Below are positions 18,424 through 45,359 of a DNA stretch of 64,000 bases, piece after piece. The position numbers and the translations under genes were made by a program. The stretch spans positions 374 to 64,373 of the forward strand of contig CAWJEL010000034.1 of assembly GCA_963841825.1 (NCBI GenBank), in the 5' to 3' direction. This stretch comes from an uncultured Chloroflexia bacterium. Its GTDB lineage: Bacteria > Chloroflexota > Anaerolineae > CG2-30-64-16. Numbering within the stretch: position 1 is the first letter of the stretch; every line of letters begins with the position of its first letter. The notes beneath the pieces are model-generated. The model was given only the letters and a program-made list of their open reading frames with translations, ran no database searches and was not told the DNA's origin.

Positions 18424-19989
18424 TCAGGATCGGGCTTCGCTCAGACTCTCGCCCATCCGGGCCACGAACTGATCGACCATGCGATACGATGAGATGATCG
18501 GGATCTTGGTCAGGAGGGTGGGCGGGCAGTTGGCTTTATAGGTCTGCGCGCTCACGTCGTAGCCGGCCGCGTTCATATGTTTCATGAGCGCGACCGCGTT
18601 GTCGGCCTGGTAGAAGCGGATAGCGCTGAGATGGCGTTGGCCTTCGATAGACTCGATAGCCTCCGGGAACTCGGTCGCAAGCTCGCACAGTTTATCGTTG
18701 TAGTAGTCGCCCAACCCGGCCACGTAGGCGCTGTTAGCTTCGACGAAGGCCATCGTGATGAGATAGGCGAGCGACGCAAGCTCTTCCTGGCCGTTCGTCA
18801 CCAGCGCGCCGAACTGATGCAAGAGGTCATACTCAGCCGTTGTCAGGATGCGCGACGCGGGGTACTGCCCGCCGGGGAATCCCTTGCCGACCGAGACAAA
18901 GTCAGGGTTGAGGCCGTACTCCCGGAAGATGAAGAGATCGGGCGACCAGATGCAGGATTGGATTTCGTCAACCAGGATCGGCACATCGCGGCCGCGGCAG
19001 AGGGCGTAAGCTGCGTGCAGGAATTCGGGGTGCAGCCGGATCGCGCCGTAGTTCATGAGCACGATTTCGTGGAAGAAGCCTGCGACCTTGTAAGGCGCCA
19101 CGTCCCATTGTGCCAGCGTGGCCTCAAAATCGGCGATATCATTGATTTTAACTGGCCGCACGACGTATGCGCCGTGCTCTGCCAGCTTGGCGCCGAGCTC
19201 GGGCCACATATCGCGCATCATTTGGGTAAGCATCGTGGTGCCGTGGTAGTTGGCCTTTCTGCCGCCCTCCTGGTCGGCGATGACCAGGAAGACCGGAGTA
19301 CGACCGGCATACTGGGGGTGCGGCAGGTTGTCCTCGAGACGGTAAAAGCGCGCCATCATGCACTTCAGGGCCGCTTCGACGGCCAGGCTGCCCGTTTCCA
19401 GGTTGAGCACGCGGTTGATTACATGCGGCTCGGCGGAGGCGCAGATGCGATCGAGGGCTGCCACATCGCCCCTGGAGACGCCGTTCGCCACGCGCACCAG
19501 CTCGCGTTCGAGCAGACGGGTGATGTGGCCCCGCGTATTGTTGTGCGTAGCATTGCAGATGCCGAGCCGCTCGGCATTGAGCAGCAAGCGGTAGCCTGGG
19601 AAGTCGTGGCCCAGCGCGGCGTGGTAGTGCTCCGATTTGGTGATGAGGTACAGCCGGCCATCCTCGCCGATGCGATAGAAGCCCATGCCGCCGAGTGGGG
19701 CCATGTCCTGATTGGTGGCCTTGCTCATCGGGATCGTGGTTGCGCCGGGCGAGGACGCGGCGAACCCTGGCGTGACGCGCTGGCCGACGGCTGTCAGCAG
19801 GCCGTCGAGACGTGCCGCGTAGGCCTCCGGGAAAAAGTCGATCTTCTCTTCCGCCAGCGCTCGGTAGGTGGCGATGTCCCCGCCATCGAGAAACGCTCTC
19901 GCCTCGCACAGCGCGTCGGTGTACTCGGCGCCTACCAGATCGGCGAGCGATAGACTGATGTTTTTAAGTTCACTGCGCTTAGCTGCCAC
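18424..19989 (-). CDS. Class-III (fold type I) PLP aminotransferase-like protein
   Basis: 521 aa with ILVDEIQS and FVSVGKGF (PLP-lysine context). Confidence 0.7.
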   Translation of the reverse strand: MAAKRSELKNISLSLADLVGAEYTDALCEARAFLDGGDIATYRALAEEKIDFFPEAYAARLDGLLTAVGQRVTPGFAASSPGATTIPMSKATNQDMAPLGGMGFYRIGEDGRLYLITKSEHYHAALGHDFPGYRLLLNAERLGICNATHNNTRGHITRLLERELVRVANGVSRGDVAALDRICASAEPHVINRVLNLETGSLAVEAALKCMMARFYRLEDNLPHPQYAGRTPVFLVIADQEGGRKANYHGTTMLTQMMRDMWPELGAKLAEHGAYVVRPVKINDIADFEATLAQWDVAPYKVAGFFHEIVLMNYGAIRLHPEFLHAAYALCRGRDVPILVDEIQSCIWSPDLFIFREYGLNPDFVSVGKGFPGGQYPASRILTTAEYDLLHQFGALVTNGQEELASLAYLITMAFVEANSAYVAGLGDYYNDKLCELATEFPEAIESIEGQRHLSAIRFYQADNAVALMKHMNAAGYDVSAQTYKANCPPTLLTKIPIISSYRMVDQFVARMGESLSEARS

Positions 19990-20174: not shown

Positions 20175-20978
20175 TTACTTTGTGTCGAGGCCCAGCAGGA
20201 ACTCGCAATAGATGCGGCCGGTCAGCTCGAGATCATTGAACCGGCTGTTGAGCTGCGGTAGGATCACCAATTGGGCAGAAGGCAGCAGTGCGGCCATCCG
20301 GCGGGCCAAAGCGATGGGATGAACCGGGTCGTTCTCCCAGGCGATGATTTGGACGGGACAGTGCAGGGTCGAGAACGGCGCGAGATCCAGGATCCAGTCG
20401 GCGACCGCGTCGCAGGCTACGGCAATGCTTTCGTCCTGGTGCGAATGCAGCATCGCCGCTAAGGTTGTTTTGGCGTCTTCACTGAGGCCCATCTCTGGCC
20501 ATTCGTTGGCGGCCGCCTCGACGATGATGCCCCCCGCGCCACGATCAGCAAACGCCTGCCCCAGCGCCTTAAGCCGATCCCGTCCCGGATTCGGGGTGTC
20601 ACCCAGGGCCGGGCCGGTAAGCAGGAGGCTCTCCACCCGCTCCGGCCAGCCGAACGCAAAGAGGAGGGCGGTCGCTGCGCCCATCGATTCCCCGCCGATG
20701 ACCGCCCGTTCGATCTCGAAAGCATCCAGGATGCGCGCCATGTCACCGGCCATGCGCTCCGGGGTGTAGAGGGCGGGGTCGGTGACGGGGGTGGAATCGC
20801 CGTGACCCCGCTGGTCGTACGTAACGATGCGATAGCGGTCGGCGAGCGGCAGCAGTTGTCTGCGGATGTAGCCCCGGTTATCGGTCAGGCCCGGCGCGAA
20901 GACCAGCGGCCTGCCTTCGCCGAAGGTCTCGGCTGCCAGCAACAGCCCATCGGACGCGACAAGGTGTGGTCGTTCCAT
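20175..20978 (-). CDS. Alpha/beta-fold hydrolase
   Basis: 267 aa with QRGHGDS and the nucleophile elbow GGESMGA. Confidence 0.8.
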   Translation of the reverse strand: MERPHLVASDGLLLAAETFGEGRPLVFAPGLTDNRGYIRRQLLPLADRYRIVTYDQRGHGDSTPVTDPALYTPERMAGDMARILDAFEIERAVIGGESMGAATALLFAFGWPERVESLLLTGPALGDTPNPGRDRLKALGQAFADRGAGGIIVEAAANEWPEMGLSEDAKTTLAAMLHSHQDESIAVACDAVADWILDLAPFSTLHCPVQIIAWENDPVHPIALARRMAALLPSAQLVILPQLNSRFNDLELTGRIYCEFLLGLDTK

Positions 20979-21036: not shown

Positions 21037-22311
21037 TCAGGCGTAGTCGCGGTAACGCTCGACGCGCACCTGGGCGGTGAGCGCGTGGGCCAGCATACGC
21101 TCGACCTGGCACTGGCGGTCGGTCACCTCGCCGATGAGCCGGCTGGCCGCCGGGGTCATGCGCTGGTAGGTCACCGTCTTGAGAAACTTGCCGACCCACA
21201 GGCCGCCCGTGTAGCGCGCCGAGCGACTGGTGGGCAGGATGTGATTGGTGCCTATCGTCTTGTCGCCATACGCCACCGTGGTTTCCTCGCCGATGAACAG
21301 CGAGCCGTAGTTGCGCAGCCGGTCCAAATATCCGTCGGGTTCCTGGACATGGAGTTCCAGGTGCTCGGGCGCCCAGTCGTCGCTGATCGTGATGGCCTCG
21401 GCGCGATCCCGGGCGATGTAGATCCGGCCGTTATCGCGCCACGATAGGGCAGCGGTTTCGCGCGTGGGGAGCACCGCCAGTTGGCGCTCAAGCGCCGCGT
21501 GCGCGGCTTGGGCAAATGCCTCGCTGAAGCACACCAACGCGATCCCGCTGTTCGGGTCATGTTCGGCCTGGCCGAGGAGGTCGCAGGCTACCAGCATGGG
21601 ATCGGCCAGATCGTCGGCGATCACCAGGATTTCCGTGGGCCCGGCCAGAAGATCGATGCCGCAGCGTCCGTAGAGCTGGCGTTTGGCCTCCGCCACGTAT
21701 TTATTGCCCGCGCCGCAGATGATATCGACCGGCTCGAAGACGCCCATGCCGAAGGCCATCATCGCCAGCGCCGGCACGCCGCCCAGGACGAAGATGCGAT
21801 CGGCGCCGGCCCGATGCATGGCATTAATGGTGGCGCCGTAGTAGCCCTCGCCCCTGATCGGCGGCGTGAACGCGTAGATGTTGTCGACGCCGGCGACCCG
21901 CGCCGGGATGATGCTCATTTGGGCCGAACCAAACATCGGGTAGCGCCCGCCCGGGATGTAGCTTCCCACCGACTGCACAGGGATGTGCTTGTGGCCGAGG
22001 ATCACGCCCGGTTGGGACTCGATCTCCAGCGGCAGCATGGTCCCAAGCTGGGCTTGTGCGAACCGGCGGACGTTTGCCTGGCAGAACGCCGTATCGGCGA
22101 TCAGTTGCGGATCGAGCCGGGCGATGGCTGCGTCGATCTGGCCGGGGCTGAGCTCGAATTCGGGCGGATTCCAGTCATCGAATTGCGCGCTGTACCTGCG
22201 TACGGCGTCCAGGCCGTGCGCCTCCAGGTCAAGGAGCATCTCCGACACGATGCGCGCCGTTTCAGGATCTTTTTCGAAGAGCCGGTGGCCGCCCTGTTTG
22301 TATAGATGCAT
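21037..22311 (-). CDS. Histidinol dehydrogenase (HisD) family dehydrogenase
   Basis: 424 aa with GPTEILVIADD, GQAEHDPNS and GTNHILPT. The context argues for a non-histidine role. Confidence 0.8.
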   Translation of the reverse strand: MHLYKQGGHRLFEKDPETARIVSEMLLDLEAHGLDAVRRYSAQFDDWNPPEFELSPGQIDAAIARLDPQLIADTAFCQANVRRFAQAQLGTMLPLEIESQPGVILGHKHIPVQSVGSYIPGGRYPMFGSAQMSIIPARVAGVDNIYAFTPPIRGEGYYGATINAMHRAGADRIFVLGGVPALAMMAFGMGVFEPVDIICGAGNKYVAEAKRQLYGRCGIDLLAGPTEILVIADDLADPMLVACDLLGQAEHDPNSGIALVCFSEAFAQAAHAALERQLAVLPTRETAALSWRDNGRIYIARDRAEAITISDDWAPEHLELHVQEPDGYLDRLRNYGSLFIGEETTVAYGDKTIGTNHILPTSRSARYTGGLWVGKFLKTVTYQRMTPAASRLIGEVTDRQCQVERMLAHALTAQVRVERYRDYA

Positions 22312-22328: not shown

Positions 22329-23936
22329 CTATTGGTCCATCAGCGCCATTCGCCCGGGCCGGAAGATACGATCGTCCATCAGCGCAAGCTGGCTGCTAAT
22401 GAGCGGCCGGAACGCCATCCTGGCCAGAACGTCGCGCTGGAGGTCGATGCCCGGCGCGATCTCGATCAGTTCCAAGCCAGCGCGTGTCAACCGGAACACG
22501 CAGCGCTCGGTCACGTACAGGACGGGCTGGCCGGCCTGCGCGGCCATCGTGCCGCTGAACGTGACATGATCGACGTGATCGACGAACTTGGGCGCCCCAG
22601 TATCCTGTTCGATCATCAGCTTGCCGTCTGCAACCCAGATCTGAGAGTCGCCCACCATGAACGTACCCACGAACACGACCCGCTTGGCGTTTTGGCTGAT
22701 GTTGATGAAGCCGCCCGCGCCGGCCAGCCGCGGCCCAAACTTGCTCACGTTCAGGTTCCCGTGCCGGTCGGCCTGGGCCAGGCCCAGCACGGCCAGGTCC
22801 AGCCCGCCGCCGTCGTAGAAGTCGAACTGGGCTGGCTGGTCGATCAACGCGTCCATATTCGTAGATGCGCCGAAGTTCAGCCCACCAGCCGGGATGCCGC
22901 CGATCGTGCCCGGCTCGGTGGTGAGCGTCACGGCATCCAGGATGCCCTCTTCATTGGCGATGCCGGCCACCAACTCGGGCACGCCGATGCCCAGGTTTAC
23001 GACCATGCCCGGCCGTAGCTCCAGCGCCGCGCGGCGGGCGATGATCGTGCGCATCTCCAGCGGCAGCGGGGCCAGGCTGGCCGCCGGCACCCTGATCTCG
23101 CAACTGAAGGCCGGGTCATAGTCGGTCGCAAAGGTTTGGCAGTGATTCTCCGGCCGGGCGACGACGACGCAATCGACCAGGATGCCGGGGATCTTTACCT
23201 GGCGAGGGGGCAGCGTGCCGGGTTCTGCTAAGCGTTCCACCTGGACGATGGTGCGGCCGCCGGAATTTCTTGCGGCCATGGCCAGCGCCAGCACCTCCAG
23301 CGTCAGCGCCTCCCGCTCCATGGTGATGTTGCCGCGAGGATCCGCAGTCGTGCCGCGCAACAGAGCGATGTCGATCGTCAAGGGCTTGTAGGCCAGGTAC
23401 TCGCGGCCGTCGAATGCGATCAGCTCGACGATATCCTCGGTCGTGCTCGCGTTGAGCTTGCCGCCGCCGTTGCGCGGGTCCACGAACGTGCCCAGCCCCA
23501 CGTGCGTGATGGTGCGCGGCTTGCCCGCAGCCGCGTCCCGGAACATGTGTGTGATCACGCCCTGGGGTAGGTTGTAGGCCAGGATCTTATTTGCCAGGGC
23601 CAGCCTCTGCAGTTCGGGAACCAGCCCCCAGTGGCCGCCGATCACCCGCCGCACCAGCCCTTCGTGCGCCAAGTGGTTCAATCCGCGGCCCTTGCCGTCC
23701 CCCTGGCCGGCCGCGTAGATCAGCGTCAGATCGCGCGGGGTTCCGGTCGCCAGGAAACGCTCCTCCAGCCTGATGGCAAGCTCTTCGGCGAAGCCGATGC
23801 CGACGAACCCGCCCGTGGCGACCGTGTCGCGGTCACGGATCAGGCCCACGGCCTCCTCGGCCGAGACAACCTTGCCGCGGCCACGCGGGGCTGCCCGGGC
23901 GACAGCCCCGGTGGGTTCGCTCATCGCGTCAGTCAT
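22329..23936 (-). CDS. Fused family-I CoA-transferase (YdiF / acyl-CoA:acetate-3-ketoacid type)
   Basis: The start MTDAMSE overlaps the upstream stop (ATGACTGA). Shows [15 protein letters not shown] and [22 protein letters not shown]. Confidence 0.8.
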
Positions 23937-25044
23937 GGATGGTTGCCTCCCCAATCTGCGTTCCTCCGCGTTGGTCCGTGTCCCCTCTCCTGTTTGCGGG
24001 CCGCACAAAGCGGTGCTGGTGAACCGCATCCCGCATGGCGTAGAAGTTCTCCACCGGGATCAGTTGGTGCAGATCGTGGCTGGAGGCGCAAATATAGCCT
24101 CCGCCACCTGCCAGCCGGTCGATATGATCCTGGACCTCGCGGGTAATCTCTTCCCGCGAGCCGTGCAGCAGAACGCCGTCCACATCGATATTCCCGCACA
24201 GGGCGATACGATCCCCGTACTTCTCCTTGATTTCGTAAATGTCCTGTAACCCGGCGCACGGTTCGAGGGGATTAAGGACGTTGATACCCATCCGAATGAA
24301 GTCCGGGATCATACGGGTGATGTTGCCGTCGACATGATGGAACACCAGTCTCCCGTGCGCTTTGGCCATTTGGACTTGCTGGCGCAGGTAACGTGTTTCC
24401 AGCCGCTCCAGCATCGCCGGGCTGCACATCGGTCCGGTTTTGGTCACAAACGCCGATCCTATCTTGATGACCTCCACCGGAAAGTGCAGGAAGGTTTCCA
24501 GTTCCCGCAGACACCAGTCCTGGATGATATGGATAAACTCCTCGACGAACTCGGGACGCCACTTGGCGTTTAGCCAGAAATCTTCATATCCCATCGCCGT
24601 GGCCGTCACGAAAGGAGCCGACTGGGTATTGCACACGACGCCTATTCCCGTGCCCTGCAGCCGATTCAGCAGTTCCTCCAGGCGGCGCTGCTGCAAGTCC
24701 AGGTCGGGAAACCAGATATCCTTCAGATCATCCGGCGTCTTAATCATCCCGTCGATATAGTGGAGACGCCCCTCAGCGTCCACCCGCTGCTTTCGGCCCA
24801 GCCGCCAGATGTGGGAAAAAAAGATCATATCGTTGCCCATGCGCCGGTTGAGCTCGATGTAGTCGGGGATGGGTAACTCAAAAACCAGCCGATCCATGGG
24901 GAGAGCTATGCCCAGGATCTGCCGTGCCAGGGCCATATCGGGCCCGATCTCAAACAGGGGAATCTCCTGCGTTTCGATGTGCCGGGCGGCATCCAGAAAC
25001 CGCCTTTTGTCCGGATTTCTCATGCGCGGCTTCCCTTCATACAT
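23929..25044 (-). CDS. URO-D family protein
   Basis: 371 aa with [36 protein letters not shown] and [10 protein letters not shown]. Confidence 0.8.
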
Positions 25045-25069
25045 CTCCGCCTTGAGCCCGCGCTCATGA

Positions 25070-26119
25070 TCAGGCAGGTTTTCCCGCGCCCGCGCCGGCG
25101 ATCAGCCGCGCCGCGTTGTTGTACATCACATCCGCGATGTCCTCGGCGCTCAGCCCGACCAGTTCCGCGGCCTGGCGAAAGGCCAACAGCTCCTCGTACA
25201 TGAAGAATGAGAGCTGGGAACCTTCCTCCTCGCTCACCTCGCGCATGTGTGTGTCGTCGCTGACGTCACCGTAGAGGCCGGGCGGCACTAAATTGACATA
25301 ACTTCCACTTTCACAGATACGGCGCATCCGCATCCGCACGATCGGCAGGTCGCTGCCGAAGACCACGCGCTTGGGCCCGACCGCCCGCAGAAGCTGCTCC
25401 ATCGCATAGGCGCTCGTGTTGGCGCAGAAGTCAAAGTGCATCCGCCGCGCATCCTTGAGGATGTCGAACGCGTCCCCCACGTCCTCCGGGCAGTAGGCGC
25501 GGCCGATATGCGCGATCACTAACCGGACGTTGGGGTAACGGTGCTCGATCTCCAGCATCATCTCCAGGTTGAGCGGATCGCGCAGCCGGCCGCGCCGCGG
25601 GATGTGCAGCATCACGATCCAACCGTGCGCATCCGCCACTTCGAGGTGGTAGCGGGGCAGGAAGTCGAAGATCGAGATGTCATCCGACGGGATGTGTGGC
25701 GGCGCCCATTCCAGGTAAGGTTTCAGCCCCAGGAAGCCGCCTTCGACCACGCGTGCCTCCAGTTCCTGGGCCGTCCACGCAGGGGTCGTCACCAGGAAGC
25801 TCGATAACCCCTGCTGCGCGGCTGCCTGGCTTACGTACTGGTTGCTGCGGTCCAGGTCATACTCCTGGGTAGCGGGGCCGAAGATGACCGGGGTGACTGT
25901 CTGCCGAGGGAACATCCGACGGTAAGTCTCCAGCAAGTCCGCGATCGGGTTTTCGGCCGCGACGCGGCCCGGCCATGTTGGGCCGCGCCTGGCGACCGTA
26001 GAGATTTGACGGTGGGCGCCAAGCCAAATGTGGGTGTGGATATCAATGATCCTGGGGGGCAAGTAGTCCAGATGTTTCTCGTAAAATAACCTGTCTACAG
26101 GTTTGATCTCTAGTTCCAT
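25070..26119 (-). CDS. Amidohydrolase_2-type metal-dependent TIM-barrel hydrolase/decarboxylase
   Basis: 349 aa with IIDIHTHIW (HxH) and VVFGSDLP. Confidence 0.8.
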   Translation of the reverse strand: MELEIKPVDRLFYEKHLDYLPPRIIDIHTHIWLGAHRQISTVARRGPTWPGRVAAENPIADLLETYRRMFPRQTVTPVIFGPATQEYDLDRSNQYVSQAAAQQGLSSFLVTTPAWTAQELEARVVEGGFLGLKPYLEWAPPHIPSDDISIFDFLPRYHLEVADAHGWIVMLHIPRRGRLRDPLNLEMMLEIEHRYPNVRLVIAHIGRAYCPEDVGDAFDILKDARRMHFDFCANTSAYAMEQLLRAVGPKRVVFGSDLPIVRMRMRRICESGSYVNLVPPGLYGDVSDDTHMREVSEEEGSQLSFFMYEELLAFRQAAELVGLSAEDIADVMYNNAARLIAGAGAGKPA

Positions 26120-26141
26120 GGGATGATACCTCCTGGGATTC

Positions 26142-26285
26142 CACTACAGCCGCACTTGTCCTCAGGCGCGGGCGCTGCGGCCTCATATCTGAGCTAGGTC
26201 GAAGCGCCGCGCTCACTCTTGCGCATCCCCGCCTTTCGATCGCGAAGCACTCAAGGTGCGTTGGGGGGAAGTGCGGTTGTAGTAC
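26142..26285. repeat. MITE-like inverted-repeat element, family 2 (copy 1)
   Basis: Termini are CACTACAGCCGCAC and GTGCGGTTGTAGTAC, with internal CGCCTTTCGA...ACTCAAGG. The second copy lies at 55432-55554. Confidence 0.7.
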
Positions 26286-27070
26286 TAACCAGCCTCGCCG
26301 TCCAGCACGCCGTCCAGCTCTTCGCTGCACCGTTTGAGCACGTTCATCAGCGCGAAATCGCCGCCCCAGGGCACGATCTGCGCGCCCAGCTTACGGTAGC
26401 GGGCCAGGTCCTCTATGCTGCCGGCCGTGATGCCCCACGCGATCCCATTTCGCTGCGCGACTGCGGCAACGCGTGAAACCACGTCCGGGATGGACAGCGG
26501 GCTGCTGCTGGTGCGCAGACGTAGCCCCAGATCCCCTGGGCCGATGAAGATACAGTCGATGCCCGGCACGGCCGCGATTGCCTCAAGATTCTCGACGGCT
26601 TCGGGAGTCTCGATCTGGGCGACGATGAACGTCTCGCGGTTTGCGTCCTCGAAGTAGGTCGTGTTCGGTACCCATACTTCGATGCCATAGTCGCCGTCCA
26701 GACCGGCGCCATCTACCCCGCGGTTGCCCAGGGGTGGGAACTTGACCGCCTCGACTACCCAGCGAGCGATCTCCGGCGTCGAGACAAACGGAACCATGAA
26801 ACCGGCCGCGCCTTCTTCCAGGTAGTGATAGAGATGCGATCGCCCGGTGGTCTGCGGCCGCACCATGCAGTCGATGTCGTTGTGGTAGCAGGCCGCGATG
26901 ATCGCCTGGACCTCGCGATCGTTCATGGTGCGGTGTTCCAGGTCGAGCCAGATGCCGTCATAGCCGAAGTGGGCGGCATGGCGGATGAAGAAGGGCAGAT
27001 AGTGCCCGGTCCCGCAGATGCGGGCAAACTGCCCGCTGCGGAGTTTGGCCAGGACCTTGCTTTTTCTCAC
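26285..27070 (-). CDS. HpcH/HpaI family aldolase (2-keto-3-deoxy-sugar-acid aldolase type)
   Basis: GTG start 6 nt after AAGGAG, overlapping the upstream stop (GTGA). Shows IWLDLEH and FIVAQIETPEAVENLEAIAAVPGIDCIFIGPGDL. Confidence 0.85.
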   Translation of the reverse strand: MRKSKVLAKLRSGQFARICGTGHYLPFFIRHAAHFGYDGIWLDLEHRTMNDREVQAIIAACYHNDIDCMVRPQTTGRSHLYHYLEEGAAGFMVPFVSTPEIARWVVEAVKFPPLGNRGVDGAGLDGDYGIEVWVPNTTYFEDANRETFIVAQIETPEAVENLEAIAAVPGIDCIFIGPGDLGLRLRTSSSPLSIPDVVSRVAAVAQRNGIAWGITAGSIEDLARYRKLGAQIVPWGGDFALMNVLKRCSEELDGVLDGEAG

Positions 27071-28303
27071 GGATGACTCCTTGAAGTGGGTTGATTGAAA
27101 TGTCGTGCAGACTGCACGAACCACGTTACCTTGCCCGGCGGGGTGTCGAGTGTAAACGGGCTGCCCTGGCACAGGACGAACCCTTTAGCACGCTGTCCCA
27201 GCGTGAGCTGTCGGTGAACTTCGGCCTGAATCGTTTCCCTGGCTCCGTCGAGCATTACCTGGACCGCATCGACGTTGCCAAACACGCAGCAGGCGCCGTC
27301 TACCCCTGCGATCACATCGGCGATGTCCACCGAGAAGCCCTTCTTGCTCTCCTCGACGGCCAGCGCGTCCATGCCGAGCCGTCTAAGCCAGGGCAGCCGC
27401 GGGATCACATCACCGCAGTAGTAGAGAATGACCGTCAGGCCGAGTCGCTTTGCCTCCGCAATGTACGGGCCAGCCGTCGCGTAGGCGAAACGTTCGTAGT
27501 CCCGGGGCGAGATCAGGTCGGCGGATGAGAGACACTCTTCCAGCCACAGGTAGCGAACGCCTGCCGCGGCCTGGCCGGCCAACAATGCCATGCGCTGGCG
27601 GCCGCGACGCTCCATGAGATAGGTGAAGAGCTCGGGCTTTTCGCGCATCATCACCATCATTCCCTGGAACCCCACCAGCCCATACGTTGACCAGAATGGG
27701 GTGGGCGCGATGCAGGACAGCGGCACCCGGTCGCCGATGCGTTCGGCCAGGATCTTCGTTACCTCGAAGACACCTTGCGCGGCCAATTCGTCGGTGGATC
27801 GGATAGGCACGAGCGCGTCAACATCGGCGCGGGTGTCCAGCCCGGCCGACTCATCCCAAACATCGGCGGTTGCGGTTCGGGCAGGGTAAGCGTAGCGGGT
27901 TGCGGTGGGCAACATCAGCCGGCCGGGCTCGTCCATGTCCAGGGTTTCGCCGCTCTCCTTGTCCACGTAGAGCCAGCGGCCCTCGGTGAAGCGCATCTCC
28001 CCGCGCTCGGCCCACTCGCGCGTCTCGGCCGGGTGGGTGTGGATCCAGTCGGGCTGCTCCTCGAGGCTTTCATAGGCGCCGAGAATGGCCTCGGCGCGCA
28101 AGCGTGCGTCCTCAGCGTAGTCGATGCTCACAGCCCCGCACTCCGGGGCGGCGAACTGCGCGGAGAGCTTGCGTTCGTAGGCCAGCGCGATAGAGGCGCT
28201 GGGTCTGCGCATCCAGGTAGAGGCTGAGGTAGGCGGGCGCGACTGCGGGCACATCGGTGGGTTGGCCCGCGATGGCTTTTTGTAGACGTTCCCTGGCATT
28301 CAT
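27067..28303 (-). CDS. URO-D family protein, one frame break near 28195
   Basis: The N-terminus MNARERLQKAIAGQPTDVPAVAPAYLSLYLDAQTQ continues in the frame of ORF 27067-28299 (LAYERKL...YYCGDVIPRLPWLRRLGMDALAVEE...). Confidence 0.75.
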
Positions 28304-28319
28304 CCGCAACGATTCCTCT

Positions 28320-29333
28320 TTATTCGCCGAACAGAAACGCCAGCGCGTTGGCGTTGTTCTGCGTCCGTTGTGCCGGCGAGAGCGCGTCCAGCGCGGCCTT
28401 CTCCTGCTCGTAGGTTCCCTTGAGTCGGAACTCGGCGTAGATCCCCTCGCCCTGCAAGCGCCGCGTGATGTAGCTGTGGTACGGCGAGTCGGTCCCCCAG
28501 ATAATCGTCCTGGGGAAGCGTTCGACCAGGGCCCGCATGACCTCGACGTGGTTCGAAAAGTCGCCTGCGATGCGGTCCGGCGGCAGCGCCATGAGTGGGC
28601 TGTCCTGGTAGGCGAGCTCGACCTGGATCTTGAGGGCAGAGGTGTCCACCCAGACGTTGGGCAGCGCGTCGGCCCGTTCCAGGAGCTCCCCATGAAAGCC
28701 GATGCAGTGGGCCAGACAGTAGCGCAGCTCCGGGTGGCGCTCGATGATGTCCAGGGTGTCGGCCGCCTGGGAATACTCCTCGCCCCGACTGACGGCCACG
28801 TGGAACAGGATCGGCCAGTTCCGCTCAGCGAAGAAATTGAAGAACGCTTCACCCGGGTCGAGCAGCTCCGTGACCTTGGTTTGGGTCGAAACCGGCGCGA
28901 TTTTGACACCGTAGATCGGGAACTCCGCCTCCAGCCCGCGCAGGATCGCGATCTGCTCGGCGACCAGCCGGCCCGGATCCACCGAGATGAAGGGCAGGAA
29001 GCGGCCGCTATGTTCGGGACAGAAGTGGAAGACGTCGGTGAGCAGGAGAAGGTTCTCGCGCTCGTAGGGTGCTCGCGAGATGGGGCTGGCTGCGGGCTCT
29101 TTGCGGCCTGTCTCGATGAGGAGTTGCAGGTCGAAGAACAGATCCGGCCCGGTGGGGAAGACGACCGATACGTCCACGCCGTTGGCCCGCTGGCGATAGG
29201 CCAGGTCCTCGACGCTTGAGCAGTAAGGGAAGCTGATTTGTGCGGCCTCCCGGATCTGGATGCCGGCGTGGGAGTGGATGTCGATAGTTTTTCCGATTAG
29301 GTCTGCGCGACAGATGTGTTTTTCAATCATCAC
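28320..29333 (-). CDS. Amidohydrolase_2-type protein (tandem paralogue A1)
   Basis: 337 aa with TIDIHSHAG and IIWGTDSPYHSY. Confidence 0.8.
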   Translation of the reverse strand: MMIEKHICRADLIGKTIDIHSHAGIQIREAAQISFPYCSSVEDLAYRQRANGVDVSVVFPTGPDLFFDLQLLIETGRKEPAASPISRAPYERENLLLLTDVFHFCPEHSGRFLPFISVDPGRLVAEQIAILRGLEAEFPIYGVKIAPVSTQTKVTELLDPGEAFFNFFAERNWPILFHVAVSRGEEYSQAADTLDIIERHPELRYCLAHCIGFHGELLERADALPNVWVDTSALKIQVELAYQDSPLMALPPDRIAGDFSNHVEVMRALVERFPRTIIWGTDSPYHSYITRRLQGEGIYAEFRLKGTYEQEKAALDALSPAQRTQNNANALAFLFGE

Positions 29334-29342
29334 CCCTCTCCG

Positions 29343-30425
29343 CTACCGCCACTTGGCCACGTGGTCGAAGATCGTCAAGATATTCTCCCAGGGCGCGTCC
29401 CCGTGAATATAATGACTGGGCGCCAGGATGAAGCCGCCGCCCTGGCCCAGCGTCTCCACCAGTTCGTCAAGGTGCCGGCGAACATCCTCCGTCGTACCAT
29501 GCACGAGGACGTCCTGCACGTCGATCCCGCCATGGAAACACAGATCCTTTCCGTACTCCCGCTTGAGCCGCCGCGGATCCATGCCGGCCGCGGTGGTCTG
29601 GATGGGATCCAGGATGTCCACGCCAATATCGATGAAGTCCGGGATGAAGTTGAACACCGCGCCGCAGGAATGCTGCATCACGCGTGCGCCGTGCCGTTTG
29701 GCCACCTCAAAAATCCGCCGATGATACGGCTTGTAGAACCGGCGATACATCTCCAGGCTGATCAGGTTACCGCGCTGCGTGCCGAAATCGTCCTGCACGC
29801 AGATGATGTCGATGCGACCCCCGGCGGCCTGGAGCGTCCGGTCGGTCAGCTCCGCAAAGAACGCTCCGATCGCCCCGTGGCAGTACTCCACCAGCTCCGG
29901 ATGAAGCGCCATCTCCGTGAGAACCCGCTCGAAGCCCAGCAGGTTGGCGACCTGGCCGAGGCCGCCGGCCAGGAAGAGAATGGCGTAATCGTCCGCGTCA
30001 GCGCATTGCCGGGCGACGGTGGCGTAGTCGAACGCGTCGGCCTTGGGCCAGTTGTATCTTTGAAGATCAGCCAGCGACTCGGCATGCGCCAGCGGGTGAT
30101 CGATGACCTCGTCGTTGTGCCCCCCGGCGCACGCCACCCAGCGCCGTCGATAACCATAGATGGTGTCCCACGTGCCATCGGGGCGGATGGCGGGATAGAG
30201 CACGCGCGTCGCGTCGCCGCGATACACGGGATAGACCCCGTGCAGGCAGTTGTTGAAAATGCCGTAGGTATCCACCGGCAAGGCGCGGACCAATGCTTGC
30301 ACGTCGGCCGCGCCGAAATGGGTCTGCAGCCGGCGCAGCACATCGTCCGATGCCTTGAAGCCCACCGGCAGGATGTCGCTGGGCCGCCGTTCAACTGCGG
30401 CCAGAACGCGCTCCCTGTGATTCAT
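29343..30425 (-). CDS. URO-D family protein
   Basis: 360 aa with MNHRERVLAAVERR, ICVQDDFGTQRG, FIPDFIDIGVDILDPIQ and GGGFILAPSH. Confidence 0.85.
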   Translation of the reverse strand: MNHRERVLAAVERRPSDILPVGFKASDDVLRRLQTHFGAADVQALVRALPVDTYGIFNNCLHGVYPVYRGDATRVLYPAIRPDGTWDTIYGYRRRWVACAGGHNDEVIDHPLAHAESLADLQRYNWPKADAFDYATVARQCADADDYAILFLAGGLGQVANLLGFERVLTEMALHPELVEYCHGAIGAFFAELTDRTLQAAGGRIDIICVQDDFGTQRGNLISLEMYRRFYKPYHRRIFEVAKRHGARVMQHSCGAVFNFIPDFIDIGVDILDPIQTTAAGMDPRRLKREYGKDLCFHGGIDVQDVLVHGTTEDVRRHLDELVETLGQGGGFILAPSHYIHGDAPWENILTIFDHVAKWR

Positions 30426-30462
30426 TCACTTCCTCGGAACCGGCGTCGCTCACGCCATCCGT

Positions 30463-31499
30463 TCATGCCTCGCCGAACAAGAAACGGATAGTGTTCGTAT
30501 TGACTTGCGCGCGTTGCCCGGGCGACAGCCGGTCCAGCGCGGCCTTCTCCTCTTCGTAGGTGCCCTTCAGCCGGAACTCACGATATACCCCTTCCCCCTG
30601 GAGGCGGCGCGTGATGTAGCTGTGATACGGCGAATCGCTGGCCCACAGCATGGTGGTGGGGTATCGCTCGACCAGTTGCTGAAACAAGCGCGTGTGATCA
30701 TCGTAGTCCAGGTCCAGCATCTGGGCCGACCAGTCGTCCCGCGCGCCTTATCCTCCCGAAAGATCTCTACCTGGATCTTGAGCGCCGCGGTATCGACATA
30801 CATGTTCGGCAATTCGGCCGCGCGCTCGAAAGAAGGGCGATGACAGCCGATGCAGTGCGCCATGCAGAAACGCATCTCGGGATGGCGTTCGGCGACCTGA
30901 AGGATGTCGGCGACCTGTGAGAAAGGATCGGTCGGATCGAGCGTGGCGTGGAACAGGACTGGCCAGTCCCGCTCGGCGAAGAACGCCAGCAGCGGCGCGC
31001 CTACGTCCAGCAACGCCAGCGCCTTCGACTGCGCCATCAGCGGGTGGATTTTGACGCCGTAGATGGGAAACTCCTGCTCGAGATCCTCCAGGCTCGCGAT
31101 TTGCTCAGGAATCAGCCGGCCCGGGTCCACCGAGATGAACGGCAGGAAGCGTCCGCTGTGCTCCGGGCAGAACCGGTAGACGTCGGTTAGCAGCAGCCGG
31201 TTCTCGCGCTCGTAGGGCACATGCGAGATCGGCCGGGCCGCGGGCCGCAGCTCCCCGGTTTCGATCAGGGTCGGCAGGTCGTAGTGCAGCGCCGGCGAAA
31301 TGGGGAAGACCACACCGAAATCCACCCCATTGGCCTTCTGCCGGTAGGCCAGGTCCTCGGCGCTGGAGCAGTAGGGGAAGTTGATCTGCGCGGCCTCGCG
31401 CAGCGCGATTCCAATATGAGAATGCGCGTCGATCACCTTTCCGGCCAGATCTTCGCGGCGCAGGTGGCGTTCGATTCCGTGGTGATGCATCTCTGTCAT
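30463..31499 (-). CDS. Amidohydrolase_2-type protein (tandem paralogue A2), one frame break at 30738-30740
   Basis: VIDAHSHIG. It is colinear with 28320-29333 through shared blocks (PYERENxLLLTDV, FCPEHSGRFLPFISVDPGRL, SPYHSYITRRLQGEG). The C-terminal 85 aa lie in the frame of ORF 30463-30720. Confidence 0.8.
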
Positions 31500-31558: not shown

Positions 31559-32713
31559 TCAAAGCCCAATCCGCACCCAGTGAATCCCCATCGCCGTCTC
31601 GTCCCCGGCGTAGTACGCGACCATGACATCGCCGCCCGGAAGCAGCAGCGGCTCAGGATGGCCGAACGTCCAGATGCTCATATCGGCCCAGTAGTCGGTG
31701 AAGTCGCGCGAGACACCCATGCCCGATTCATCACCTCGCGCTTTGTCGTAGAACACTAACTCCTCGGCCGCGGTCCAGGTCCGGCCGAAATCATCGCTCA
31801 GGATCGCGCGCAGGCTCGGCGGATGATGCCGATGCACGTAGGCCGCGAAAACCCAACCACCACCCAGCGCCAGTGGCGCGCAGATTTGCCCCGCGATGCC
31901 GGTGCTTGCCGGCGCGGTCCACTGCCGGACGTCCGCGGCGCCCCATGTGATATGGATGTCGAGGTCCCGCCCGGCGCGCTGATCGTGGGTCCACAACATC
32001 GCGATCAACTCCCCTGTGTCGGGCGCGACGGTCAGGCGCTGGTCCCAGTACAGGACCTCCCCCTCGGGGTCATGCGCGACGATGGCCAGCTCCGGCCACT
32101 GGCCCGGCCATGCCGCTGGATCCTCCGAGGTGCGCAGGCCTCCCGGGCCGGTGAGGCGCAGCGCGGCGTGATGCCGGCCGGGAGATGTGTCCCCCCACGC
32201 CTTCCACGCCTCGTAGGGCAGCGCCATCCGGCCGTCCCGGAGGGGCAGGATCGCGCCGGTGATGGCGTTGCCCGTGTGGGGCGCCAGCGGCGCCTCGCCG
32301 AGCACCGCCCAGCCCTCGCCCGCGTCTTCCGATGCAGCCAGGAGCGTGCGTGTCGGCAGGATCCCCTCGGTTTGCGGGTCGAAGAGCGGCAGCGCCGGGT
32401 CGCTGCGGTCAACGCACGTCAGGCACGCCACCAGGCGGTCCCCGCCGATGGGGGCCAGCCCCGCGGCGCGGATGCGGCCCCGGCCTGGCGGCAGGTCTCC
32501 GAAGCCCCGGCAGACCAGGCGCCAGGTCGCGGCGTTGTCATCACTGACCAGCACGAGGGTATCCTCGTCGGCCGCATCCTTCGAGCTGCCCACGCGCAAG
32601 GCCGCGACGAGCCGGCCGTTCTCCAGCCGCACCAGGCTGGGAACCGTGCAGAAGCGCCTCTCAGGCGGCGCGGCGGTGGCGTCGAAGATCGTTCCTCGGT
32701 CAAGGATGCGCAC
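31559..32713 (-). CDS. BNR/Asp-box repeat beta-propeller (sialidase-like), no signal peptide
   Basis: 384 aa with Asp-boxes SDDNAATW, SEDAGEGW and SDDFGRTW. The N-terminus is MRILDRGTIFDA. Confidence 0.8.
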   Translation of the reverse strand: MRILDRGTIFDATAAPPERRFCTVPSLVRLENGRLVAALRVGSSKDAADEDTLVLVSDDNAATWRLVCRGFGDLPPGRGRIRAAGLAPIGGDRLVACLTCVDRSDPALPLFDPQTEGILPTRTLLAASEDAGEGWAVLGEAPLAPHTGNAITGAILPLRDGRMALPYEAWKAWGDTSPGRHHAALRLTGPGGLRTSEDPAAWPGQWPELAIVAHDPEGEVLYWDQRLTVAPDTGELIAMLWTHDQRAGRDLDIHITWGAADVRQWTAPASTGIAGQICAPLALGGGWVFAAYVHRHHPPSLRAILSDDFGRTWTAAEELVFYDKARGDESGMGVSRDFTDYWADMSIWTFGHPEPLLLPGGDVMVAYYAGDETAMGIHWVRIGL

Positions 32714-32795
32714 GTTTCACCTCACAGTCTCGGGCGGTTGGCTCGGTCGGCCCCACAGGGGCGCTTCGGGTTCGCAAAAGAATAAGTTCCACCGC

Positions 32796-33071
32796 TGTCA
32801 TTCTGAGCGACTCTGTCCCGAATCGCTCGCGACGGCGTATCCCCAGCGAAGAATCTCTCGCACATGGCACACGAGACCCTTCGCTGGGGACGCGCTGCGG
32901 CGGGTTGTGTCTGACGGACCGCTGCTCATGAAGTACCAGGCCGAGATTCTTCACTGGTGTCTCGCCGCAACACAAATTGAGTCGTTAACCCGTTCACGGC
33001 GAAGCCGTGACAAACGGGAACCTCATTGGACTACCCGCAAGCCGCGCGGCTTGGCAGCACTCAGGGTGACA
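32796..33071. repeat. MITE-like element family 1 (copy B, composite/longer)
   Basis: TGTCATTCTGAGCG...CCAGCGAAGAATCTC...GAGACCCTTCGCTGG...GTTAACCCGTTCACGGCGAAGCCGTGACA...CTCAGGGTGACA. Confidence 0.7.
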
Positions 33072-33156
33072 TGTCCGGGAAGATATACTTTTACGAGCCC
33101 TGAGCGAAGACCGGCCAAAGCGGGGGCACTCCACCAGACACCCATCGGTCTATGCG

Positions 33157-34140
33157 TTACCTACCCGGATCGTAGTCCAGCAGCTTGATGTCGGTGTGCC
33201 ACGCAAGATCCGTGACCACGCTCGGCTTGATGTCGGCAGCCAGGCTCTCGCTGATGAATAGCTCGCTCGGTCCCATCTGCAACATCGTCGACGGCACCAG
33301 CGGCGTCGGTTTGGCTGTGATCGCCAGGCGCATGGTGAAGCGCTGCCACGACACCTGCGAGGCGCCGCACATGAATCCGTTCCACGAGCTGCGCAGCCGT
33401 GCATCCATGTAGTCTTTCGGGCCTATCGTGGCGCCCTTAGGGGGCATAGACGACCAGTCGCCGCTGATCCCCGTGTCCCCGAGAAGGCAGTTCTGCAAGA
33501 TGGTGAACGGGGTCAGCGTCACAATGCGCGGCCCGATCTTGAGCCACTCCTCCATCGGCAGGGGCGGAAACGCGTCAGAGCCCGGCTCGATGTAGGCTAC
33601 GTGACCGGACCAGCCGATGCCGCCGTAGCATATGTCGGCCCCACCCAGGTCCTCGATCATCTTGCCGTAATGCGCGAAGTTGGCATTGGTGGGACCCACG
33701 ACCTGGCTCTCAGGCGGCCGCAGATCGGGGTCCAGTTTGGCGTAGAAGTTGCGTTTTATGTTGAACAGGAAGGAGTTTTCCCACGTTTCGGGCGCGATGT
33801 TGCCGTCCTGGTCGGCACATTCGTCCATGTTAAAGGTGTACAGATGGCGGCAGTTCACCCGGAACTTGTTGCACAGGAACGCCACCGAGGCGTAAAGCGG
33901 CTCCGGGTTCGGCAGGATAATCACGTGGCGCCGCCCCTCGTCCGCCGCCTGCTTGATCCGCCCAAAGATCGCCATCACCTGCTGAAAGGCGAACTCTTCG
34001 TCCTTCAGGATCGTGATCTTCAGGTTGGGATGCTGGAAACTCGCGAGATCGGCGTGCGTGACCGACCGCGCCTTCTCGCATGCTGCTTGATCCTGGAATG
34101 GAATCCAGGATGCCATCTTGAAATCGAGACCCTTGAACAT
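33157..34140 (-). CDS. Glucosamine-6-phosphate deaminase / 6-phosphogluconolactonase (NagB-Pgl) family protein
   Basis: The start MFKGLDF follows AAAGGGAGG. GGIGWSGHVAYIEPG resembles the NagB GxGxDGHxAFNEPG block. Confidence 0.7.
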   Translation of the reverse strand: MFKGLDFKMASWIPFQDQAACEKARSVTHADLASFQHPNLKITILKDEEFAFQQVMAIFGRIKQAADEGRRHVIILPNPEPLYASVAFLCNKFRVNCRHLYTFNMDECADQDGNIAPETWENSFLFNIKRNFYAKLDPDLRPPESQVVGPTNANFAHYGKMIEDLGGADICYGGIGWSGHVAYIEPGSDAFPPLPMEEWLKIGPRIVTLTPFTILQNCLLGDTGISGDWSSMPPKGATIGPKDYMDARLRSSWNGFMCGASQVSWQRFTMRLAITAKPTPLVPSTMLQMGPSELFISESLAADIKPSVVTDLAWHTDIKLLDYDPGR

Positions 34141-34284: not shown

Positions 34285-34381
34285 AGATTCTTGTTTTGTA
34301 TGCCGGAATCCGATTGGTAAGGGCCTAAAGGATCCTGCGCGATGCCGGTGGTGGAAATCCAGATTTATCTTTGCCCCCTGC

Positions 34382-35510
34382 CTAGTACCTGCCGTGCTTC
34401 TCCACCAGATCGCGCATGATCTCGATCCGTTCTTCGACCGCGTGCGGCGGGACCTGGTCGCCGGCGTTGGCGATGAGGCGTGGGCCGTGTTTCATCAGCG
34501 CCAGCCAGTCCAGGACCGACTGTTTGAAGACCTCGACAGGGACCTCCGGCAGCCACAGGTTGGGTGGCACGCCGCCGGAGAGAATGAAGTTGGGCCCGCC
34601 CTCTGCGCGACACTGGGCTGGGGTCAGATCCCCCATGGGCGTGGGGGTGATCGCGTCGCCGCAGTCCGCGCCCGTGTCGCGGATCATACCGATGGCCCCG
34701 CGCAGCCTGCCGTCGATATGCACGGCGACGTACTTCTTCGGCCGCGTGTAACCGACGGATCGCCTCGACGTAGTAGGGCCGCGACCATCTCCCGAAAATG
34801 TGGGGCGGCTGGAGATCACTGGAGAAGTTGTCGCCCAGGATGATGATCTCGGCGGGCGACGCCGCCAGCAGGTCGATCAGCTTGAGGTTGTTGTCGTTGA
34901 TCTGATCGACGACCTCGCGCAGGGTTACAGGCCAGTCCGCGGCTGCGTAGGCCGTGCCGCTAACGCCGAGCCAATAGTTGAGCAGGTGCCCCATCGCGCT
35001 GTAGCCTGCTGACAGGTAGACCACGCCCATGTTGCCGACCTCGTCAACCCAGGCCCGGTAGCGATCCCACAACGGCGCGTAGGCGCGCGAGCCCAGCGCA
35101 TAGCCCAGCACGCGCAGGTCTTGTTCGGTCTGCACCCCCCACCGGGTGATCGCCCACGAGTAGGACACCTCCTCCCACATGCGCCGGCGCTCGATGCTGC
35201 CAAACGGGGTGGTCAACCGCCAAGCAATCTCGGGCACGCCATCGTGGTCCACCTTCGAGACGTCCGACTGCACGTCATTGCCGTAGGCCGCACTGTAGAA
35301 CGAGCCAAGGTTGGGCATGTAGAAGCCAGCGCCGGCCCGTTTGTGATATGCGATCAGGTCGTACTCCGGCTGGTCGTAGGCGGCGCTCAGATCCCACGGC
35401 ATCCGGTTCTTGTGGTAGAACCAGTGCGAGAGATCCAGCATGTACGGCGCCACGTCCGGCGCCTCGCCACGGTAGACCGTGAGGATGCGCTCGCGCATTG
35501 TCATTGTCAT
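34382..35510 (-). CDS. URO-D family protein, one frame break near 34741
   Basis: The N-part MTMTMRERILTVYRGEAPDV...IILGDNFSSDLQPPHIFGRWSRPYYVEAIRRLHAA joins KKYVAVHIDGRLRGAIGMIRDTGADCGDAITPTPMGD. Confidence 0.75.
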
Positions 35511-38122: not shown

Positions 38123-38201
38123 CGCTTCCGCTCTTTGAAATCGGGTAAATAGTCGCAAGCTGTCCGCAATTCTACACCCAGGCCGACAGCCTGTCAACAC
38201 A

Positions 38202-45311: not shown

Positions 45312-45359
45312 GTGGGCTGCTCCATCGCTAATTCATAAGGGTGCATTCAAAATCAGTTG

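Follow-up and report, generated by a model that had tools for sequence, protein, structure and literature searches.

Layout of the alternating block

We describe here a block of genes at positions 23929-31499 on the minus strand of a 64,000-nucleotide (nt) stretch of contig CAWJEL010000034.1, from an uncultured Chloroflexia bacterium; this whole stretch was analysed and is called the window. Genes were assigned from the open reading frame (ORF) listing and Pfam scans of the window, and it turned out that genes of the Amidohydro_2 family (A1 to A3) and of the URO-D (uroporphyrinogen decarboxylase) family (U1 to U3) alternate in this block (Table 1). A first-pass annotation of the same DNA took the repeated adjacency of the two families as a sign of a two-enzyme functional unit. 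Our own reading, which we hold with evenly divided confidence, is that the block may be the core of a catabolic super-operon, grown by stepwise gene addition, for an imported carbohydrate-like compound with N-substituents (amino, N-acyl, possibly methyl). Among the new leads, the most concrete is the pair of A1 and the NagB-like gene X33, which is conserved across phyla.

The gene order from the BNR gene to the alpha/beta hydrolase gene and the spacers of 9, 16, 25 and 37 nt, both given in that annotation, agree with the ORF listing and Pfam matches and with the junction sequences, respectively. The U1/A1 spacer is 9 nt to a GTG start codon (12 nt to an ATG), the A1/U2 spacer is 16 nt (to the ATG at 28303), and A3/U3 and A2/U1 are separated by 25 nt and 37 nt. 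Besides, the stop codon of U2 overlaps the start codon of the HpcH gene in the sequence GTGA. The tight spacing together with the start/stop overlap indicates co-translation. The genes had been described as a one-strand operon of 12 genes; they do share one strand, but the run is much longer, roughly 6173-38212. Two long gaps occur in the otherwise tight operon, at 26120-26284 (165 nt, between the HpcH gene and A3) and at 32714-33156 (443 nt, between X33 and the BNR gene). Neither has an Rfam match or a clear promoter or terminator, and the counts of the promoter and terminator scan were not above those of shuffled sequence.

When the gene order within the operon was shuffled, 1.6-1.8 adjacencies of an A and a U gene were expected versus 4 observed (P ~0.03-0.06). 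The interleaving is only marginally non-random, and the gene content, not the order, is the unusual feature. We judge it improbable that the paired Amidohydro_2 and URO-D genes encode, each time, a dedicated unit of two enzymes, perhaps in a complex and perhaps both non-oxidative decarboxylases with related substrates. The four A-U junctions with their spacers of 9-37 nt and the marginally non-random order speak for such a unit, as do the A-U2 and A3-U3 adjacencies kept in close relatives and, in the related locus L007, an A4-like gene that adjoins a U5-type gene. The comparisons below, of other genomes, of paralogues and of catalytic residues, speak against it.

Table 1. Genes of the alternating block and of the surrounding island in the window (last column: residues of the URO-D-like proteins at the H-x-C position and at the distal Cys position of MtaA).
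Feature	Position	Strand	Assignment and remarks	H-x-C position; distal Cys position
Tyrosine recombinase (phage integrase family)	639-1844	-		
URO-D fragment	9120-9833		Pfam	
DegT/DnrJ/EryC1	11094-12107	-		
DeoR regulator	17476-18255	-	Pfam; recurs in related loci	
Class-III aminotransferase	18424-19989	-	Pfam; recurs in related loci	
PcaD-like alpha/beta hydrolase	20175-20978	-	Pfam	
HisD-like dehydrogenase	21037-22311	-	Pfam; TIGR00069, 411.6 bits (cut-off 243.8)	
Fused CoA-transferase	22329-23936	-	Pfam	
U3, URO-D-like	23929-25044	-	Pfam, 83 bits	HHVDGN; ASSHDL
A3, Amidohydro_2	25070-26119	-	Pfam, 85 bits; subfamily other than that of A1	
HpcH/HpaI-family aldolase	26285-27070	-	Pfam; GTG start at 27070	
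U2, URO-D-like	27067-28303	-	Pfam, 110 bits	[LF]YYCGD; CQGSPF
A1, Amidohydro_2	28320-29333	-	Pfam, 66 bits; small isolated family	
U1, URO-D fold, MtaA-like	29343-30425	-	Pfam, 80 bits	HSCG; PSH
A2, Amidohydro_2	30463-31499	-	Pfam, 59 bits	
BNR_2-like beta-propeller	31559-32713	-	Pfam BNR_2 match below cut-off; no obvious signal peptide	
X33, distant NagB-like	33157-34140	-	Family profile against NagB structures	
U4, URO-D-like, frameshifted	34365-35510	-	Faint Pfam match, 15.5 bits; tblastn with intact orthologues	VHIDG[RK]; NAGDQV
DegT/DnrJ/EryC1	36926-38212	-	Best NCBIfam match LegC/PseC-type	
DeoR regulator beside the MTTB gene at 39244-40716	38267-39163			
Second non-Pyl MTTB-family gene	39244-40716	+	Pfam; uninterrupted ORF	
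U5, URO-D-like	44187-45311	-	Pfam, 130 bits; second cluster	IH[IV]CGN; AAGDMV
Aminotran_3	45495-46811	-	Second cluster	
U6, URO-D-like	47076-48146	-	Pfam, 73 bits; second cluster	HSCG; AAH
BNR_2	48189-49361	-	Second cluster	
Non-Pyl MTTB	49805-51295	-	Pfam; uninterrupted ORF; second cluster	
A4, Amidohydro_2	51405-52496	-	Pfam, 64 bits; second cluster	
AKR	52513-53487	-	Second cluster	
Amidohydro_2 genes	55554-56306 and 56364-57071		Pfam	
DHDPS	57171-57839		Truncated-looking ORF	
Two FG-GAP repeat protein genes	61632-63910	-	Opposite end from the recombinase gene	

Neighbours of the two families in other genomes

A profile of the A1 family was scanned against 185,579 species genomes and gave 44 loci, all from metagenome-assembled genomes (MAGs), which are distributed over Chloroflexota, Acidobacteriota, Spirochaetota, Planctomycetota, Verrucomicrobiota, Kiritimatiellota, Lentisphaerota, TA06, Omnitrophota, Armatimonadota and Dependentiae. 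In 21 of the 44, from about 10 phyla, X33 is no more than 300 nt away from A1 and the two ORFs often overlap; with the limit set at 10 kb, the number rises to 27. A URO-D-like gene is found within 10 kb of A1 in 18 loci from several phyla (within 2.7 kb in 15 of these) and directly beside it in 4. The most constant neighbour of the A1 family is the NagB-like X33, not a URO-D gene, and the X33-A1 pair is tighter and more widespread than the pair of amidohydrolase and URO-D genes. Other recurrent neighbours of A1 are a DeoC-family aldolase (8 loci), AKR, SDR, GFO_IDH_MocA, class-III aminotransferase and DeoR genes.

From the URO-D side, a profile of the U1 family was scanned against metagenomes and gave 80 loci, and the 102 immediately flanking genes of 67 loci were scanned with Pfam. 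Amidohydro_2 accounts for at most 1 of these 102 genes, and in a hidden Markov model search it stood beside a URO-D gene only in two near-identical relatives. The flanking genes comprise URO-D (6), LacI/sugar-binding proteins (4), PfkB (2), IU_nuc_hydro (2) and B12-binding (2), with one match each for a fucosidase, a rhamnosidase and an apiosidase-like protein; LacI regulators, sugar-binding proteins, sugar kinases and glycosidases are enriched. The gene contexts of U1 homologues of 51-60% identity vary as well.

The commonest immediate neighbour of a U1-family gene is another URO-D gene (the 6 of 102 above), and in metagenomic contigs U1-family genes often stand as tandem pairs or triplets of divergent paralogues, as in L054, L058, L090, L095, L099, L100, L106, L122 and L123.

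For U2, the order A-U2-HpcH-A3 is retained in relatives down to 56% U2 identity, and distant U2 relatives (38-40% identical) lie in clusters of URO-D, SBP_bac_5 ABC transporter, MTTB and Amidohydro_1 genes. Two such clusters, L134:6729-17242 and L136:3287-12292, contain a distant U2-family URO-D gene, SBP_bac_5, two permeases (with an ABC ATPase in L134), MTTB and Amidohydro_1. A FmdA_AmdA formamidase-like or M20 peptidase gene lies upstream, and there is no corrinoid protein in either cluster.

Generally, the URO-D-like genes are not paired with Amidohydro_2, but some catabolic clusters repeatedly bring them together with MTTB genes and with genes of the amidohydrolase superfamily. The co-occurrence of the two families beyond this genome is real at the level of the gene cluster, as seen within 10 kb on the A1 side, but fails as direct adjacency from both sides. 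In more distant relatives A1 abuts HpcH, A3 or X33 and the adjacency with a URO-D gene is lost, which, like the flank count of the U1 family, speaks against a dedicated two-enzyme unit. A fixed two-enzyme unit is not supported: the pairs are not duplicated cassettes, and in the loci scanned from either side their adjacency is neither conserved nor enriched.

Four A1 loci have a LarA-like racemase gene together with GNAT and a URO-D-like gene. In L031, L032, L033 and L051 (MAGs of TA06, Omnitrophota and Dependentiae type), X33-A1 is followed by the LarA-like gene (nickel-pincer racemase family), the URO-D-like gene and GNAT; the URO-D-like protein is of the YHSDGN...GSSNSI type, and these genes lie about 1-7 kb downstream of the A1 homologue. 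LarE-like and NadA-like genes are also nearby in L031, L033 and L051.

Paralogue divergence and growth of the block

In an all-against-all BLAST the URO-D paralogues are 20-35% identical to each other, and A1 and A3 give no match to each other; because of this divergence the pairs are not duplicated cassettes. A1 and A2, which are 65-67% identical, are the sole recent paralogues. They had been called tandem duplicates with shared sequence blocks, and both the identity and the blocks are there, but U1 lies between the two genes, so they are not strictly tandem.

The gene orders of relatives suggest how the block was assembled. In L133 (84-93% nucleotide identity) the order is U4-BNR-A-U2-HpcH-A3-U3-CoAT-HisD-abH-AT3-DeoR, with a single A gene and with neither U1 nor X33. 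In L135, in which U2 is 56% identical, the order is BNR-A-A-U2-HpcH-A3, with two A copies in true tandem. In neither locus does a U1 lie between A copies. L009 matches the window, while more distant Chloroflexota have U4-(BNR)-A1-HpcH-A3 or U4-A1. The position of A3 downstream of A1 and HpcH is conserved in other Chloroflexota, in which U4 is the URO-D-like gene most often kept beside BNR and A1. It follows from these gene orders that U1 was inserted between the duplicated A genes and that U2 and U3 belong to a narrow clade only. The relatives show a stepwise growth of the block, with A-U2-HpcH-A3-U3 in place before an extra A copy and the inserted U1. A recent tandem duplication of an A+U cassette was also considered and was rejected on the paralogue divergence and the gene orders of L133 and L135. 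The absence of paralogous cassettes counts against the two-enzyme unit as well.

Besides, a U2 homologue of 73% identity (P0463) comes from a MAG labelled as a Nitrososphaerales archaeon. This label is probably a case of mis-binning, and horizontal transfer is possible.

Gene integrity

Several genes of the island are interrupted by frameshifts. A2 is split across two frames near 30741-30750, at a run of G, as expected if one G had been lost; the SPYHSYITRRLQGEG block and the N-terminal part are in different frames. In U2 the split is near 28182-28187: the long ORF starts at 28299, and the true N-terminus, MNARERLQK, starts in a different frame at the ATG 28303; an N-terminus of this type is the usual start of such URO-D-like proteins. 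U4 has one frameshift near 34740-34834, and in tblastn its intact orthologues cover residues 1-378 in two frames. The FGGY kinase gene (~7829-9138) and the URO-D fragment U7 (~9165-9984) are frameshifted too. Other ORFs that look truncated are DHDPS and the Amidohydro_2 genes at 55554-57071.

These at least five frameshifted genes (A2, U2, U4, FGGY, U7), the further truncated ORFs, the integrase gene and the variation in gene order between close relatives would fit an arrangement with no specific meaning, that is, expanded and partly pseudogenised paralogues in a mobile or decaying island. We hold this to be improbable. Each of the five genes has an intact orthologue and is well conserved in both frames, and the shift in A2 fits a one-base loss in a G-run, typical of an assembly error. 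These families are found together again in Chloroflexota, Acidobacteriota, Spirochaetota, the PVC (Planctomycetota-Verrucomicrobiota-Chlamydiota) group, Omnitrophota and others, and the tight spacing with start/stop overlap, as described above, indicates co-translation. Since the orthologues of all five genes are uninterrupted in close relatives (L009, L133), and related contigs carry names of long-read style, the frameshifts are probably assembly indels rather than gene decay.

The NagB-like partner X33

X33 has no Pfam match. When the profile of its family was compared with solved structures of NagB (glucosamine-6-phosphate deaminase), a match of E=7e-16 was found, and the motifs TFNMDE and GGIGWSGHxAxxEPGS, invariant or nearly so in the family, correspond to the NagB catalytic-site motifs xFNxDE and GG.G.DGHxAFNEPGS. 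On the NCBIfam nagB model (TIGR00502) X33 scores 41 bits (E=1e-10) versus a cut-off of 237, and the IMG names of its cluster members agree with the assignment. Being below this cut-off and without a Pfam match, X33 is a divergent relative of NagB and not an orthologue. In loci L010-L051, from about 10 phyla, X33 lies directly upstream of A1-family genes, often with overlapping stop and start codons.

Residues of the amidohydrolases

All five Amidohydro_2 paralogues, A1 to A4 and a further one, A5 (133 bits), exceed the PF04909 cut-off of 26.4 bits, and DxHxH, G-x-K, H, H and D are aligned in all of them. In the A1 family HxH, K144, H178, H209 and D282 are invariant. The AlphaFold2 model of A1 (predicted local distance difference test, pLDDT, 90.7) has H178 as the closing residue of predicted strand 5, H209 directly behind strand 6, and K144 within strand 4, one residue before its end. 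The resulting pattern HxH-K-H-H-D would be the ligand pattern of the binuclear hydrolases of the amidohydrolase superfamily.

A1 itself forms a small isolated clade, since of 1.84 billion cluster representatives its profile matches only 425 at E<=1e-3. No PDB chain was matched at E<=1, either by the single sequence or by a profile of 20 sequences. Foldseek returned distant neighbours (TM 0.5-0.58), namely an uncharacterised Clostridium protein, dihydroorotases (rank 2-4), IDCase, DHBA decarboxylase and LigJ; IDCase and DHBA decarboxylase have a TM of only about 0.5 and are interleaved with the dihydroorotases. For A1, no sequence homology to the solved ACMSD, LigW and IDCase decarboxylases was detected, a further point against two decarboxylases working as a unit.

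Residues of the URO-D-like proteins

The Pfam gathering threshold of PF01208 (23.9 bits) is passed by U1, U2, U3, U5 and U6; the low score of U4 comes from its frameshift, and its intact orthologues are called URO-D. The HemE motifs PxWxMRQAGR and GFxGxP[FW]TLxxYxxEG were absent from U1-U7 in a regular-expression search, and the best scores on the hemE model TIGR01464 are 43 (U2), 41 (U5) and 22 bits (U1) versus a cut-off of 303. A HemE-type decarboxylase was rejected as a candidate, the signatures being missing. The two families had been brought together on the rationale that both contain non-oxidative decarboxylases, and this rationale is not supported, as the HemE signatures are absent, the URO-D-like proteins align on the metal ligands of MtaA and the amidohydrolases, with their ligand pattern typical of hydrolases, have no detectable sequence similarity to the solved decarboxylases. 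It leaves the two-enzyme unit with another argument against it.

In residue pattern the URO-D-like proteins appear to resemble MtaA, not HemE. In the U1 family H252-x-C254 is invariant and aligns exactly, by profile, on the His-x-Cys zinc ligands of MtaA (4ay7), and the position of the third MtaA cysteine is occupied by Ser-His338 (His in 21 of 26 sequences). Over the paralogues the alignment gives H-x-C in U1, U5 and U6, H-x-D in U3 and U4, and Y-x-C in U2. None of the paralogues keeps the distal Cys: U1, U3 and U6 have His in its place, U4 and U5 have Asp, and U2 has no obvious substitute. A conserved constellation of residues is present in these proteins; its absence, which the first-pass annotation had named as a finding that would refute its proposal, was not observed. 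The AlphaFold2 model of U1 (pLDDT 92.9) has MtaA as its best Foldseek match (E=2e-14, TM 0.63-0.67), followed by HemE and MetE, while against PDB sequences U1 gave only a weak match, to CdmB. CdmB (PDB 9rui, PMC13222342) is a URO-D-fold corrinoid methyltransferase.

These likenesses bear on the main rival to our reading, corrinoid-dependent methyl transfer. Under it, the URO-D-like proteins would be MT1/MT2-type methyltransferases (as MtaA, CdmB or the MT1 of O-demethylases) which, together with the MttB-like proteins, demethylate methylated amines or O- or N-methylated sugars through a shared corrinoid protein encoded elsewhere, with the amidohydrolases serving other steps. We judge it unlikely, though deserving to be taken seriously; the decarboxylase unit and the meaningless or decaying arrangement are both less likely. 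The MtaA match of U1 in structure and profile, the H-x-C on the MtaA zinc ligands and the 108-117 bits of U5 on the MtaA/CmuA models argue for methyl transfer. Against it, all paralogues are far below the family cut-offs (U1, U2, U3, U5 and U6 score 40-108 bits on TIGR01463 MtaA/CmuA versus 235), no subfamily keeps the third zinc Cys, U3 and U4 have Asp as second ligand, and the U2 family lacks the His.

The larger island

The block is only one part of an island in this Chloroflexota (Anaerolineae-like) bacterium. The Pfam scans show that the island exceeds 50 kb and contains about 7 URO-D-like, 7 Amidohydro_2, 2 non-Pyl MttB, 4 BNR_2, 4 aminotransferase and 3 DeoR genes. A second cluster on the minus strand (44187-53487) is made of the same gene families as the main block. 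In L006 and L020 the counterparts of both clusters are in one operon, SDR-AKR-Amidohydro_2-MTTB-BNR-AT3-U5-...-U4-A1-HpcH-A3, in which the order Amidohydro_2-MTTB-BNR_2 is kept. The window also has GFO_IDH_MocA, AKR, DHDPS, AraA-like and FGGY genes, an SBP_bac_5 ABC transporter and an MFS transporter.

The two MTTB ORFs have Pfam matches of E=1e-48 to 1e-57 and score 252 and 172 bits on NCBIfam versus a cut-off of 525. Their presence, together with one MTTB gene in L006/L020, the URO-D/ABC transporter/MTTB clusters of L134 and L136, a Pterin_bind gene near the block in L008 and B12-binding proteins beside a minority of the U1-family relatives (2 of 102 flanking genes, about 4-5 of 80 loci), is again in favour of methyl transfer through a corrinoid. 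A precedent for such an arrangement is Eubacterium limosum, where a single corrinoid protein, encoded elsewhere, serves several enzymes of the MttB family. Yet no B12-binding Pfam domain and no DxHxxG...SxL...GG motif were found in the 64 kb window, nor a convincing one in the 44 A1 loci, and the window has no cobalamin riboswitch. Other RNA elements, tRNAs and pterin-binding methyltransferase genes were not found in the window either.

The aminotransferases of the window are two of class III and two of DegT type (LegC/PseC-like). LegC/PseC-type enzymes normally make nucleotide-linked diamino sugars, and here they lie inside an apparently catabolic island. The BNR gene beside A2 has three paralogues elsewhere in the window (20-44% identical by BLAST). 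The BNR proteins have only weak similarity to PDB sialidases, and a sialidase function was rejected since nothing was found beyond Asp-box similarity. In an NCBIfam scan of 20 island proteins, only the HisD-like protein was above a curated cut-off (TIGR00069). The tyrosine recombinase gene at one end of the window and the two FG-GAP genes at the other may be borders of the island.

A possible pathway

Beside the anatomy, conservation and residue patterns, which were observed directly, the catalytic roles below are inferred from superfamily membership. If the block is the core of a catabolic super-operon, import of the substrate would be the task of the SBP_bac_5 ABC system or of the MFS transporter, with DeoR as regulator. 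The amidohydrolases could act as metal-dependent hydrolases which remove an N-acyl group, as NagA does, or open a lactam or lactone ring, and the NagB-like protein could then deaminate and isomerise the amino sugar thus released, or its phosphate. The skeleton would be remodelled by aminotransferases (class III and DegT) and by AKR and GFO oxidoreductases, the keto-acid or sugar phosphate that results would be cleaved by HpcH (in other genomes by DeoC or DHDPS), and the HisD-like dehydrogenase, the CoA-transferase and the alpha/beta hydrolase would process the fragment. The URO-D-like proteins might be metal-dependent TIM barrels that remove or transfer a small heteroatom substituent, most plausibly methyl, possibly together with the MttB-like proteins. 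On this model A and U genes would be neighbours because their products take off different decorations within one pathway, and not as an obligate unit. In favour of this reading speak the build-up of the block in relatives, the paralogue divergence, the NagB-like partner of A1 and the nearness of URO-D-like genes to A1. So do the sugar-type genes that recur near A1 (DeoC, AKR, SDR, GFO_IDH_MocA, LarA-like and DeoR) and in the flanks of U1-family genes, the MtaA-type motif and fold, and the ligand pattern of the amidohydrolases.

Several observations weigh against the super-operon reading. Every catalytic role is read from superfamily membership, and the amidohydrolases, URO-D-like proteins, MTTB, NagB-like protein, BNR proteins and aminotransferases are all below the NCBIfam cut-offs, which gives no hint of a substrate. 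The characterised PF04909 enzymes are mostly decarboxylases, lactonases and hydratases, not amide hydrolases, and the A1 model has no close structural neighbour (TM ~0.5). X33 is missing at the corresponding position in L133, the BNR proteins are weakly sialidase-like, and with several genes frameshifted, part of the island could be decaying.

A bolder and rather unlikely extension can be formulated. X33-A1 might be a module of deaminase and hydrolase that has so far escaped notice and that does for some amino sugar, in about 10 mostly uncultured phyla, what the non-orthologous NagB/NagA pair does for its own. The URO-D-like proteins (H-x-C/D plus His/Asp) and the non-Pyl MttB-like proteins might be a family of metal-dependent enzymes that take methyl groups or other small decorations off sugars or amines with no dedicated corrinoid protein. 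Together with the amidohydrolases, BNR proteins, LegC/PseC-like aminotransferases and pyruvate aldolases they might form a toolbox for heavily decorated bacterial glycans (e.g. N-acylated or methylated diamino sugars and nonulosonic acids), for which we know of no described catabolic route.

What we have at present is a lead and not a discovery. It would give a context to groups known only by annotation, such as URO-D proteins that are neither HemE nor MtaA, non-Pyl MttB proteins lacking a corrinoid partner and an isolated Amidohydro_2 clade, and would tie them to the way in which uncultured Chloroflexota, Acidobacteriota, Spirochaetota and PVC-group bacteria of sediments, soils and sludge turn over carbohydrates or amino sugars. 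With just two genes, the NagB-like/A1 pair makes a compact target for enzymology. The changes from Cys to Asp or His at the MtaA zinc site suggest that the fold was recruited for a different chemistry.

Comparison with known systems

In the literature we found no paper on URO-D-like proteins with amidohydrolase, MttB, Chloroflexi or sugar clusters, and the CdmB study was the sole useful one. With MtaA, MtbA and CmuA the URO-D-like proteins share the fold, the best match (MtaA 4ay7), the H-x-C of U1, U5 and U6 at the zinc site and the MttB genes of the island. They differ in scores far below the family cut-offs, in the distal Cys changed to His or Asp, in the Asp as second ligand of U3 and U4, and in a gene context of carbohydrate type with no corrinoid protein nearby. 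HemE has PF01208 membership and the TIM-barrel fold in common with them, but the signature motifs are missing, scores do not exceed 43 bits and the context is not that of tetrapyrrole genes. The two uninterrupted MTTB ORFs recall MtgB, MtpB, MtcB and MtyB, but they are below the NCBIfam cut-off, and the window contains no cognate corrinoid protein or pterin-binding methyltransferase.

For A1, the likeness to ACMSD, LigW, IDCase, gamma-resorcylate decarboxylases and LigI/LigJ consists of PF04909, HxH...H...D and TM 0.5-0.58, while even the family profile gives no sequence match to solved members. The extra invariant Lys (strand 4) and His (strand 6) resemble dihydroorotase and phosphotriesterase, which have the binuclear hydrolase pattern.

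The closest parallel in organization is NagA/NagB and AgaA/AgaI, in which a deacetylase and a deaminase/isomerase are followed by an aldolase. Here too an amidohydrolase-superfamily gene stands beside a NagB homologue, often with overlapping stop and start codons, and aldolases (DeoC, HpcH) and DeoR or LacI regulators are nearby. The difference is that A1 belongs to PF04909 and not to the Amidohydro_1 family of NagA, that the NagB-like protein is too divergent for Pfam, and that A1 is a deacylase by inference only. In conclusion, the cluster is an undescribed variant of a familiar type of carbohydrate catabolic operon, filled with superfamily members of uncharacterised role.

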